64,000 nt of DNA from NCBI RefSeq assembly GCF_006345805.1, contig NC_043000.1:82212001-82276000 (forward strand), read 5' to 3'. Positions 4,624-62,399 of this stretch are shown piece by piece (position 1 is the first letter of the stretch; each line of letters begins with the position of its first letter). A program made the position numbers and the translations under genes. Source of the stretch: Octopus sinensis. Lineage: Eukaryota. The notes beneath the pieces were generated by a model. That model was given only the letters and a program-made list of their open reading frames with translations, made no database searches and was not told the DNA's origin.

Positions 4624-5156
4624 CAGTGTTTTTCAACCATTTTTTACCTATGGACCACTTTCATTCTTATTTTACTCGGATGGACCTCCATAGTCATTCA
4701 ATGATTAAAAAATCCTATATTTTTATAAGTGAAGGTACATGGCCTAGTGGTTAGAGCAGCGGACTCGCTGGCGTTGTGTGCGTTTATGAGCGAAACACCC
4801 AAGCTCCGCGCGGCTCCGGCAGAAGGTAATGGCGAACTTCTGCTGACTCTTTCGCCACAACTTTCTCTCACTCTTTCCTCCTGCATCTTGCAACTCACCT
4901 GCGACGGACCGGCGTCCCGTCCAGGTGGGGAACCTATACGCCAATGAAATCGGGAAACCGGCCCTCATGAACCGGGTGTGGCTCGAGAAGGAACAAACAA
5001 ATATTTTTATAATCAAATATTAGGTATTGTATAAACAAAATTGGCAAAGTATTTTGTGCATTGTAGAAGTGAAACCAATTTATTGCAGATAGATTTTAAC
5101 AACAAAATCTTATATGAAACCCCAAGAGCCATACTAACCCCGGTTAAGAACCACTG
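4624..5156 (+). mobile_element. hAT/Charlie-like MITE interrupted by a SINE
   Basis: TIRs CAGTGTTTTTCAACC / GGTTAAGAACCACTG; degenerate 8-bp flanks CTTTAGAC / CTCTTGAT; same family in reverse at 49822-50061. Confidence 0.75.
4729..5000 (+). mobile_element. tRNA-derived SINE (family C here)
   Basis: A-box-like TGGCCTAGTGGTTAGAGC, central CTGCGACGGACCGGCGTCCCGTCCAGG, AACA tail; exact 12-bp TSD ATATTTTTATAA at 4717-4728 and 5001-5012. Confidence 0.9.
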
Positions 5157-48745: not shown

Positions 48746-49138
48746 GTGTGTGTGTGTGTATGTGTGTGTGTGTGTGTATGTATGAGAAACCCTTCTCATT
48801 ATCAGCTATTTTCAACAGATTCATGCGAGTTTCTTCTGCACCACCAGGTGTATCTCCATATTCTTTGGGTAGGTGTGCAGTATTATTTTGGGTCGAAGTA
48901 GGATTGTATGTGTATATCATATTTGTTTTGCTTATATGGTTTTTTTTTGCGTTATTATTAGTGTCTCTTCTGCTTTTTGATGTAGTGTATGTGCAATGTA
49001 AGTTGTGTGACAATGTTGGGTGGTGTTTGTGTTTCGTATATGTTATGTGGGTTGTATTATGGAAACTCACGTACCAGACATGCAAACATGTTGAATTTAA
49101 CTATTTCCCCGCAGAGTGAAAAAAAAAATGGTGAAGAT

Positions 49139-49179
49139 CCTTAATCGATTTTCGTCTCTTACTGATGTGTCATCAGAGG
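49139..49179 (-). ncRNA. Type I hammerhead motif (helix II decayed)
   Basis: Minus strand: CCT-CTGATGA-CACATCAGTAAGAGAC-GAAA-ATCGAT-TA-AGG. Confidence 0.7.
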
Positions 49180-49415
49180 TGGCTAAATCACTTACCAATC
49201 CCAGAGAAAGAAATATCCAGTTCATATATATATACATCAAATCTATTAACTCTAGAGAACTGGTGCTTCTAATTTGCATATTTAACAATTTATTTTCTAT
49301 CAGAGGCCAGTCAAGAAAAACGCAGTCACACAGTACCAAGGTATAATATAATATATGTAAACCCACGTAGCAGATACACAAACATGACCAATGTTACTTT
49401 TGATAAAATGAATAG

Positions 49416-49456
49416 CCTTAATCGACTTTCGATCCTTATCGGGATCTCATCAGACG
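49416..49456 (-). ncRNA. Type I hammerhead motif (helix I decayed)
   Basis: Minus strand: CGT-CTGATGA-GATCC-CGATAA-GGATC-GAAA-GTCGAT-TA-AGG; perfect 5-bp helix II. Confidence 0.8.
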
Positions 49457-49821
49457 TGTCTATATCATTTGGCCAACACCAATGAAGCAAGAAGTCAATC
49501 CGTTTATATACATACCAAATCTAATCGCCCCAGAGAGCTACGGTTACTAATTTGCATGCTTTGAATGCTCAATACTTTAGTTAACGTCAGAGGCTTGTGA
49601 ACAGGGAACCCAGTCTGCACATTATCAAGAAACTGTAAAATATATATAAATCTATATAGTAGGCATAAAAGCATGGTAAATTTATCTTAACTTTTTCTCC
49701 GTAGAACAGAAGAGAAAATTACGAACAGTCTCAATCGATCTCCAAACCTTAGCGGCGTCTCATCGAAGCTATTGACATTGCTTGGCCAATCAACAGGAAC
49801 AAGTAGCTAATCCGTTTATAT

Positions 49822-50061
49822 CAGTTGTTCTCAACCGGGGTCCATATGAGATCCGTATAAGATTTTGTTGTTAAAATTTATGAGTAATAAACTTGCTTAT
49901 ATTTCTACAATGCACAACATTCTATAGCAATTTTCTTCTATGCAATTCCTAACAATATTCAATAGTAAAAATATGATTTTAAAAACATCGAATGGCTATG
50001 AGGGTTCATCCAAGCAAAAAAGGAATCAAAGGGGTCTATAAGTAAAAAAGGGTTAGCAACT
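49822..50061 (-). mobile_element. hAT/Charlie-like MITE
   Basis: CAGTTGTTCTCAACC..GGTTAGCAACTC; reverse complement of 4624-5156 without the SINE. Confidence 0.75.
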
Positions 50062-50278
50062 CCAGAGAATTAACATACTGTGTTAACATTTTATTTACTA
50101 TCAGCGGCTTGGGCTCTGCTGTGTGGTACAATCTTATTTGGTACTTGTGAAGAACATGAGTTGTATTAGTTGTATTATATATGTATCTTTGCGTGTAAGG
50201 GTGGTGAATGTGTAGAGTAATGGTTGTTTAATGGGGTCCATAAGGGCCTTGATGTGGATTCCATGCGAGATTTGGTAC

Positions 50279-58903: not shown

Positions 58904-60789
58904 TGTTTCTTTATTAGCCACACAGGGCTGCACACAGATAGAACAAATTACAAGGTAGAGCTTTTCTTTTGAAGGTTTAAAAAAAAAAAAAGGAAGGGGG
59001 AGTTTCGATCAAAGGGGATCGTAAAAGGAGAGAAAGAGGACAAATAAAGGGGGGTTAAAAATAAAGGGGGGGAGGAAAAAAAAAATTGATATAGGGATCG
59101 TTATCACAGAAATGTCAATATGAAGTGTAAAGGGAGGACAGGTGAGGTTTACCCGTGGAAGGAAAAGCCTACGGAAAAGACCACGGTAACCTCGGTCAAT
59201 GGAGTCACATGTTATATTTCTTTTTTTTTTTTTTTGCGAATAAGCAACTCTCGTTTTCAATTTCTGGGTTCATAGGATCATGCTCAAGGTGGCTTCGTCA
59301 TTCATACGTGCCATTCTTGCTACATTCACCCATCTTTTTTAAAACATTCGCTAGACAAAACTTGCCTCTCTACTCTCACTTTCCTTTTCAAGTGGTACTT
59401 GAAGAAGTTGATGAGAGAGATGACCAGAGAGGAAAGTGTTTGTCTCCAATCCTTTCAGACGCGTCCACCAGATACATTCTTTCGCCATAGCCACAAGGAT
59501 GATGAAAATAGCTCTTCCTTCCGTTTGAAGGAAGGAGGCGTGACAATATTGACGATAGACTCAGCTGATAAACCTACTCGTCCCACACGTGACAGCAGTT
59601 GTTCGAATAAGCCCACAGGTCGAAATTGTTGGACACTGCACGAGTGCGTGCAGAACGGTTTCGTCGCTCTGACCGCATCTTGGGCAGGTCGGCCCCGTGT
59701 TTCTCGAGCCGTGTCTGTAGAGCTATCCCGAACGGGTAGCGCTTCTCGGTAGCACTGCCGGAAAGGGATCTTGGAAGTTGTCCATGGGCCCTGGCCCGAA
59801 AGTCGTCCTGAACAGGGGTCAGGTACTCCTCGTCGACGTCCAGGTTCACCCCGAGCTCGTCGTCGTACCTCCCCTCCACTAAACCCCTATAGAATGCTTT
59901 GGTTGTGTTGAAGTCACTCAAGGTCGACCCAGGACGGCAGAGTTGCTTGAGAGCAACGCGACACTCGCGGTGCCATTCGTCCTTCCTCGGCCTCTTTTTG
60001 ATCCACGACTGCAGTTCGGTCATGGAGACGAGCTGCGGGAAAGCGTGCCTCACAAACGGCGACCACACCTGTTCACCGTCGTCTACATAGAGCCAGAGAT
60101 GTCGCAGTCTCAGCGCGTGTCTGCGCATCATCAACCACGGCATGCCCAGCCCTCCTTTTAACGGGTGTTGACAGCAAATGGATCGCCTGACCATCGGGAC
60201 GCATCCTTTCCACAAGAAGCGAAAGAGAATGCGTTGTAGTTTGGTGATGGTAGGGTCGGGACAAGGTACGACGGTCAGGCGGTAGTAGATGACGGACGCG
60301 ATATACGTGTTCGCCACCTCCGCCCGACCTTTTAGGGACAGTTTCCTCTCGGCCCATTGCCGGGCGAGAGTGACCACCCTACTTGTTATCTCGTTCCAGT
60401 TCTTCTCCACTTGGAGGTCCGGACCAAACCAGACCCCGAGCAACGCAACCGGGCCGTCGGTCCAGCGTCCCACGACGGAGGCGCTGGTGGACGGCATGGG
60501 CTTGCTTCTCCAGGTGCCTAGTCGCAAGCCCACTGACTTTTCCCGGTTGATTTTCGCTCCTGTCACCGCTTCGTAGTTTTTCAGTGTCTCGCCGACCTGC
60601 TCGATGTGCTCGTGGCTAGACACTATGACGGTGACGTCGTCCGCGTATGCAGACACGCTCGTCCCGCATCCCAGTTCTCGCGGGATGCCTCTCAAGGTTG
60701 CCAGCTTCCGCAATAATGGCTCGAGAGTCAATACGTATAGAAGCGACGAGAGGGGGCATCGCTGACGGACCGAACGTGCGATGTCGAAG
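58904..60789 (-). mobile_element. 5'-truncated L1/Tx1 LINE with 16-bp TSD in a GACA/GATA repeat
   Basis: RT motifs SVRQRCPLSSLLY, AYADDVT, GAKINREKS, LLGVWFG, GGLGMP; AATAAA at the 3' end; TSD GACAGGCAGACAGATA at 58888-58903 and 60790-60805. Confidence 0.92.
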
Positions 60790-60800
60790 GACAGGCAGAC

Positions 60801-60836
<36 letters not shown>

Positions 60837-61094
60837 TAAGCAGGGACTTACGTATGTGTTTACGTGTATGTATGTGTATATGTGTGTGTAATTGTGTGCG
60901 TGTGTGAATGTGTGTGTGTGTGTGTGTGTAATTGTGTGCGTGTGTGAATGTGTGTGTGTGTGTATGTGCATGTGTGGAGTGTTGAAGTGGATCAGTTGTA
61001 CTGTAAGATATGCAAAACATATATAAGTTCTACAAACGTATATGTATTGAGCACATTTTAATGACAGAGGTAATATCTGTACAGATAAAACTGT

Positions 61095-61150
61095 ACATAC
61101 ATACACACATACATACATACATACATACATACATACATACATACATACAT

Positions 61151-61190
<40 letters not shown>

Positions 61191-61346
61191 ACATACATAC
61201 ATACATACATACATACATACATGCATGCATGCATGCATACATACATACATACATACATACATACATACATACATACATACATACATACATACATACATAC
61301 ATACATGCATGCATGCATGCATGCATACATACATACATACATACAT

Positions 61347-61377
<31 letters not shown>

Positions 61378-61444
61378 TACATACATACATACATACATAC
61401 ATACATACATACATACATACATACATACATACATACATACATAC
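61095..61444. repeat. (CATA)n microsatellite
   Basis: Read directly; similar tracts at 7990-8195, 37180-37412, 41283-41430 and 53190-53357. Confidence 0.95.
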
Positions 61445-62399
61445 GCTATGGCTGGATTTACAAGCGTGGGGAAAAAGTATTTTAATTTCAATGGTAGAGT
61501 TAAATACGTCTTTATAAAGTCCGAATAAACTACACATGTTGTGCCTGATGTGCTCATACCTCTTTCAGTCATAAACTCATCAAAGATCAAACCCACGCTG
61601 TTCAGTTTCCCCATTAAGTTTTCAGTCAATTTGGGTTTCTGAGTTTTTTCCTCTAACAATGTTTACAGAAATTATACGTAATTACAAATGTTTTGTTTAT
61701 GTGTTTTTTGTTGTATCCTATGTACATAGTTTTGCATTGCACTCAAAATTATTTTTAGTCTCCGCCTGTATCCACCTGTCCTCATCTTTTTTCTCTTGTC
61801 TTCGCCTACCTTCGCCTGCTTTCGCCTGTCATCAATATTTTGGAAAATATTTTTAGTTTTATATTTAATCGTCATAAAATGCAACCTTCACCTAGGGCTA
61901 GCTGTTGCCATGACTTTGATTCGTGTATAAAGAAGAAAATAAATCAATTTCCCGTTCAATTTACTCAAACATTTCTTAATAAATATATTTAGTATGCAAA
62001 ATAATTGACTAACATGGAATTTTATGTTTAATTTGCTTAAAATTTTCCAGATAAAAGTATCCAACAAATAAAATAATATGAAACATTTTAAAATTAAAAG
62101 TGCTTTCAGGATTGCATTTCACTTTTGTGAACGCAATCAACTTTTTTAATCAGAGACCATATCTAGTCTTTTATCACGATAGTATCCAGTTGGCTTTGCT
62201 ACCTTTCCCCGATTGTTGTAATCTTTTGATGAAACCTTCCATTGTGCTGGTCACTGATGTCTCCTAATTCATCGTTAAAAAAGAATTCACTCGTAGAGAC
62301 TTGCAACAATCTAAGTCTTTATAACTTTCAGTAAGCTATGATACTGGGTCCTTGGTTTCTAATAAATATATCTTGCTTTGCTTTGGCATCGGGAGGCTT

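Follow-up and report, generated by a model that had tools for sequence, protein, structure and literature searches.

A decayed hammerhead array in Octopus sinensis and the dispersed, retrozyme-like 306-bp family to which it belongs

Tandem hammerhead units at the locus

The window analysed here is a 64,000-nucleotide stretch of the Octopus sinensis genome (GCF_006345805.1, contig NC_043000.1, forward-strand positions 82,212,001 to 82,276,000), and positions are counted within it. Its minus strand carries three real hammerhead motifs, A, B and C (Table 1), whose cores start at 49176, 49453 and 49766, that is, 277 and 313 bp apart, as a first-pass annotation of the letters alone had noted. The motifs of A and B begin with CTGATGA at these positions, and that of C has the decayed form TCGATGA...GGAG. 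The annotation had also described A as keeping CCT/AGG and ATCGAT, B as keeping GATCC/GGATC, and C as decayed. Indeed, helix I and the AATCGATT palindrome are intact in A, where helix II retains only 2 of 5 pairs; in B helix II is perfect, the second pair of helix I is a G-G mismatch, and a C-A mismatch lies beyond it.

Table 1. Features of the array, in window positions.
Feature	Position	Strand	Basis or state
Main array body, ~2.6 units of the 306-bp family	49058..49821	-	local alignment, four old-subfamily consensus copies, positions 250-1035
3' tail, ~82 nt beyond the copy A cleavage position, the family's fixed 3' end	49058..49141	-	
Hammerhead copy A, predicted site UUA after 49142	49139..49179	-	core 11/11
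Octamer-like motif ATGCAAAT, candidate promoter element, upstream of copy A	49272..49279	-	sequence reading
Hammerhead copy B, predicted site UUA after 49419	49416..49456	-	core 11/11
Octamer-like motif ATGCAAAT, candidate promoter element, ~104 nt upstream of copy B	49550..49557	-	sequence reading, family position
Hammerhead copy C, decayed	49729..49769	-	core 7/11
High-copy insertion unrelated to the family, splitting the upstream unit	49822..~50065 (~245 bp)	+	DNA-transposon-like ends
5' remnant of the upstream unit past the insertion	50068..50111	-	consensus 162-211, 0/500 shuffles

Outside the motif the units align significantly. With the hammerhead removed, 157 of 231 spacer columns are identical (68%), and the alignment score of 95 compares with a maximum of -2 in shuffles, none of 1000 reaching it. 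The array had been called a tandem trimer of ~280-310 bp units. The tandem arrangement holds and the full trimer does not: alignment to the family consensus gives ~2.9 units in total, consisting of the main body (36% GC) and a 44-bp remnant of the last unit, which an insertion has split. The remnant scores 49 against a shuffle maximum of 36. The insertion aligns with another copy near window positions 4635-5156, the read depth over its ends is very high, and it has the look of a hAT element or MITE. About 38 bp of the upstream unit are missing next to it, and no target-site duplications were seen by eye at the array locus.

The fold z scores of the window copies are -1.4, 0.0 and +1.0 (0.0 being that of copy A), and that of an intact family copy is -3.4. 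In the native B-A transcript the pair probability of copy B is 0.8 for helix II and 0.0 for helix I. Rfam scans gave no hammerhead match at the array locus or at the loci of four intact relatives. It had been suggested that combining the copies gives a complete minimal hammerhead; the combination is complete on paper only, and it is not minimal, because the helix III of the family motif is neither absent nor vestigial and its helix I is extended. Nor would a dimer of neighbouring copies be a rescue. The topology of a dimer with swapped helix III implies that the 5' helix I strand, the core and helix II all come from one copy; therefore, in a B-A dimer, the G-G mismatch persists in B and the broken helix II in A. 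For the native array transcript, poor or no cleavage is predicted. Two consecutive units with complete hammerheads, by which Li, Clavereau and Pollet (2026; bioRxiv 10.64898/2026.07.22.740005) recognise an 'active' retrozyme, are not found here, because of the incomplete helix II in A, the helix I mismatch in B and the 7/11 core in C.

The dispersed 306-bp family

Searches of the 2.72-Gb genome returned dispersed copies, tandem units and subfamilies, which supports the proposal of the annotation that this is an old retrozyme array; the younger members looked for exist as a young subfamily with intact type I hammerheads. The B-A unit gave at least 43 matches (40 scored of 179 candidates) and a young unit at least 95 (40 scored of 2017 candidates). 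An intact 35-nt core occurs exactly 49 times and a looser core 191 times, compared with 0 for reversed controls, these core counts including some members of a ~20-copy composite element. From the 54 exact occurrences of a 32-nt tail, at ~91% per-base identity, we estimate that there are roughly 10^3 young copies. The consensus unit is 306 bp long, with 35-38% GC, and the longest stop-free frame in consensus trimers is 100 aa. When 88 unit rows were clustered, 38 fell into a young group (mostly 84-95% identical to their own consensus) and 50 into an old one (mostly 74-85%), and the window units, at 78-82%, belong to the old subfamily. The best pair among these rows reaches 93%, so that no recent activity is seen in the sampled copies. 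Most copies are monomers and dimers; where they are tandem, the previous unit stands upstream at a spacing of 265-327 bp.

Some arrangements are of another kind. At L027/L028 (G000:C10827) and at G000:C23:21473660/21475191, intact hammerheads lie 1.5-1.7 kb apart within larger local duplications, not unit-length tandems. The composite element (~20 copies, at least 1.6 kb, 85-98% identical; L061-L068, L171-L193, e.g. G000:C1:71229900-71231500) has a sharp, GC-rich, DNA-transposon-like start and contains an intact hammerhead with ~50 bp of family tail, and no frame of a Penelope-like element (PLE). It is likely a truncated family copy that was captured and re-amplified by a DNA transposon. A 1.6-kb 'group A' element was ruled out as an autonomous parent, as it holds no PLE frame.

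The consensus motif is of type I, with CUGAUGA, a 5-bp helix II with a CAAUAA loop, GAAA and UUA. Its helix III has 2 bp and a palindromic tetraloop, and its helix I is long, interrupted, and runs on into outer stems. In 54 copies these extended stems are 84-89% paired, and 32 named pairs are 86.6% paired compared with at most 52% in slid controls, the structure having been derived from the consensus itself, which favours it in these counts. Double changes are frequent at two pairs (12 and 11 cells); in the 54 copies, neither the number of covarying pairs nor that of pair types exceeded shuffles, and the 11-pair core behaved alike. At the subfamily level, compensatory changes occur in an outer stem (U-A/C-G) and in helix II (A-U/C-G/U-A), and the outer-stem pair splits the subfamilies, being U-A in 16 of 31 old rows and C-G in 35 of 60 young ones (rows with letters). 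Read from the sequence, the two compensatory changes would suggest that the RNA was folded while the lineage was active, and they are confounded by subfamily descent. Support from covariation, which comes from two pairs, is thin. RNAalifold returned no consensus structure for the 54 copies; this is expected for copies decaying after insertion, yet it counts against a strong covariation claim. A search for helix II covariation by exact pattern gave no clear signal, its 12 matches comprising 3 Watson-Crick, 2 wobble and 7 mismatched cases.

Metazoan non-LTR retrozymes were defined by Cervera and de la Pena (2020; PMC7229834). As the available part of that paper has it, they are tandem, GC-poor, non-coding units of 150-450 bp, each with a type I hammerhead, and PLEs, present in the same genomes, are proposed as their mobilisers; examples come from coral, mussel and axolotl, together with newt satellite 2 and Schistosoma Sm-alpha. 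The octopus family is alike in its unit length (306 bp in the consensus, 313 and 277 bp here, 265-327 bp elsewhere), in a GC content below 50%, in the lack of an encoded protein and in the presence of autonomous PLEs in the genome. A type I hammerhead is recognisable in 3/3 window copies, none having all helices intact. The 2-bp helix III with a tetraloop is also that of the invertebrate retrozyme motifs described there. Unlike those retrozymes, the family consists mostly of monomers and dimers, all decayed, and is known from DNA only. The alignments show no LTR-like pair. The main text of PMC7229834, in its available part, gives no cephalopod example, and its supplement may list some. Our search of the largely open-access literature found no published description of a cephalopod retrozyme or hammerhead family, and a search on retrozymes with target-primed truncation found none of the 306-bp family.

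Core decay and candidate promoter elements

The two intact cores had been taken as a hint of selection. This was not supported, since the cores decay like their flanks. In young copies from 40 of the 54 tail-picked loci, which were chosen without the motif, 365 of 400 core bases are kept (91.2%, against 90.8% expected), and intact cores were found in 14 of 37 tail-picked copies. All 11 core bases are kept in only 6 of 30 old copies, and two intact cores out of three would arise by chance with a probability of ~0.1, before ascertainment. Selection on the core was also considered from a small excess in old copies (86% versus 81%, p 0.01) and rejected; the best explanation for this excess is that the subfamilies differ outside the core, together with the way of picking copies.

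Upstream of the hammerhead, the ATGCAAAT octamer and a TATATAAA box stand at unit positions -104 and -57 from the core in both subfamily consensuses. From their sequence, it is possible that they formed an internal promoter. The octamer and TATA elements appeared strongly conserved in BLAST-picked copies, but among tail-picked copies they show no excess (p 0.14 and 0.63). Among the sequencing runs listed as containing the array, none is of RNA; contigs from a presumed RNA run have only short family-like or MITE matches, which weigh neither way. Three DNA runs cover the array, with 4-5 differences each in long contigs and 0 in the A and B cores, where there is almost no power to detect any.

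One could imagine that the array is still functional or has been co-opted, being transcribed so that copy B, alone or in a dimer, cleaves an RNA. Two cores are indeed complete, the octamer-like motif is kept in both spacers, the DNA runs agree within the A and B cores (at very low power), and B and A could still pair through an 8-bp helix III duplex of -6.2 kcal/mol. However, both motifs are defective, B in helix I and A in helix II, the cores are unprotected across the family, and the window units, 63-69% identical to each other, are no closer than unrelated old copies (mean 68.5%). We consider a present function very improbable, and treat the array below as a decayed and likely inactive insertion.

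Copy ends, Penelope-like elements and mobilisation

The copies share a 3' end. In a set of 77 loci, from which duplicates and PLE loci were dropped and in which the window locus and 8 group A loci were kept, 49 have 3' ends +60 to +100 nt from the cleavage site; 26 of 29 young dimers terminate at +65 to +90, and the window array at +82. Of 40 tail-picked loci, 34 stop immediately after the tail, and the 5' starts are scattered from +40 to -350. A strict microsatellite follows the tail directly in 17 of 34 loci, compared with 7% at random places. The fixed 3' end, 5' truncation and microsatellite targets of PLE-type insertion are thus all present. Moreover, every copy beyond one unit runs upstream into another unit. 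Because the copies end away from the cut site, the template must have extended across that site, being circular or uncut; the intact motif within the insertions is as compatible with an uncut linear multimer as with a circle.

Young Neptune-type PLEs, with copies 97-99% identical, are present in the genome (781-aa RT, CxxC linker, GIY-YIG); for their detection GIY-YIG, rather than the linker domain, served as the Pfam model. These elements terminate ~65-75 nt past a hammerhead-like motif, after which (TA)n follows, and a second PLE family terminates ~130 nt past its own hammerhead-like motif. The same end architecture in the 306-bp family would also be expected if its units were the pLTRs (3' terminal repeats) of an extinct autonomous PLE and its copies 5'-truncated insertions and partial tandems, with no separate non-autonomous element. 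Heavy 5' truncation, partial tandems and a microsatellite bias are reported for PLEs in the available text of PMC8557442, and most PLE hammerheads are lone motifs according to that of PMC4209133. However, where a copy is longer than one unit, it is always another unit that lies upstream, and in the family loci searched with PLE proteins no ORF end is joined to a unit, the protein hits lying downstream, antisense or beyond other repeats, and no ORF with RT and GIY-YIG is joined to the repeat. We therefore consider it unlikely that the units are pLTRs of an extinct autonomous PLE. The PLE fragments near L038 and L248 represent insertions of their own. In 50 GIY-YIG-picked loci (from 147 GIY-YIG matches, 5029 candidates), no autonomous PLE shares the unit, and the PLE termini gave only AT-rich, microsatellite-like matches to it.

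The textbook target-primed reverse transcription of LINEs would also suit a fixed 3' end with 5' truncation and a microsatellite tail, and LINE RT frames are common in the fetched loci, so that a SINE-like mobilisation of the retrozyme family by a LINE (e.g. RTE or CR1-type) rather than by a PLE has to be weighed. It appears improbable, since copies of more than one unit are permuted relative to the cleavage site, the PLE/retrozyme pattern in the accessible part of PMC4209133. In the window itself, a LINE-like reverse transcriptase frame fragment lies amid microsatellites at 59574-61445 on the minus strand.

We propose, with a probability of roughly 0.7, that the locus is a decayed, likely inactive non-LTR retrozyme insertion of ~2.9 units, whose family was likely spread by the RT/endonuclease of a Neptune-type PLE. 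We infer cleavage, circles and the PLE partner, the last from architecture only, since no autonomous PLE shares the unit in the 50 loci. The active ancestors would have been transcribed as oligomers, which the hammerheads would have cut, perhaps as dimers through the AAUCGAUU palindrome (for background on hammerhead dimers, see the available text of PMC6155905). The cut monomers would then have been ligated into ~306-nt circles; reverse transcription of the circles, primed at the target, would have begun at the fixed site and passed through the junction, lasting 0.3 to ~3 rounds. The array would be one long product of an older wave, with the DNA transposon splitting it later.

This explanation fits the available parts of PMC7229834, of PMC4209133, which treats PLE hammerheads with their dimer model, U3-A8 variant and low activity in vitro, as well as the idea of a circular template, and of Li et al. 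(bioRxiv 10.64898/2026.07.22.740005), in which retrozymes are tied to pLTRs and 1 of 9 tested dimers cleaved. The octopus family shares with the retrozymes of Li et al. the co-occurrence of Neptune PLEs and the mixture of monomers, dimers and multimers. In contrast, the Xenopus retrozymes have sequence homology to pLTRs, of which none was found for the octopus family in the 50 sampled PLE loci, and the evidence of fixed ends and truncation found here is absent from the available text of Li et al. A more specific scenario is tentative, with chances we would put somewhat below even: the retrozyme family would be new to the literature, probably one of cephalopods, and its ~10^3 dead copies would document its mobilisation, a Neptune RT/endonuclease priming at a microsatellite, starting at one fixed site ~80 nt past the junction of a ligated 306-nt circle and rolling for up to 3 rounds.

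The locus itself is a fossil repeat, and animal mobile elements of its kind are already known. Arguments about the mobiliser of animal retrozymes, and about a circular template, still draw on co-occurrence and on homology to pLTRs. The ends of the copies are an independent line of genomic support for target priming of the PLE type, at a site that lies apart from the ribozyme cut, and young enzymes that are candidate partners of the family are present in the genome. If a Neptune-primed circle were the true template, the near-identical young Neptune elements and the family would provide a matched enzyme-template pair for circular-template retrotransposition.

The family motif and PLE hammerheads have in common the type I topology, a palindromic helix III, a place near the element's 3' end and the dimer model. 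The family motif differs from PLE hammerheads in that its helix III is a real one of 2 bp, its helix I is long and interrupted, its 5-bp helix II lacks the bulged base, and no RT-EN frame is attached to it. At the 3' ends of the Neptune-type PLEs at L119, L121 and L124-L128, the hammerhead-like motif has a UUGAUAA core, the U3-A8 variant, and a weak helix I; its helix II differs in two subfamilies yet stays paired. The flanks of PLE loci contain two more hammerhead-like motifs, which belong to other sequence families (L119:70-130, plus strand; L122 near 987, minus strand), and from these the genome likely holds several hammerhead-like families.
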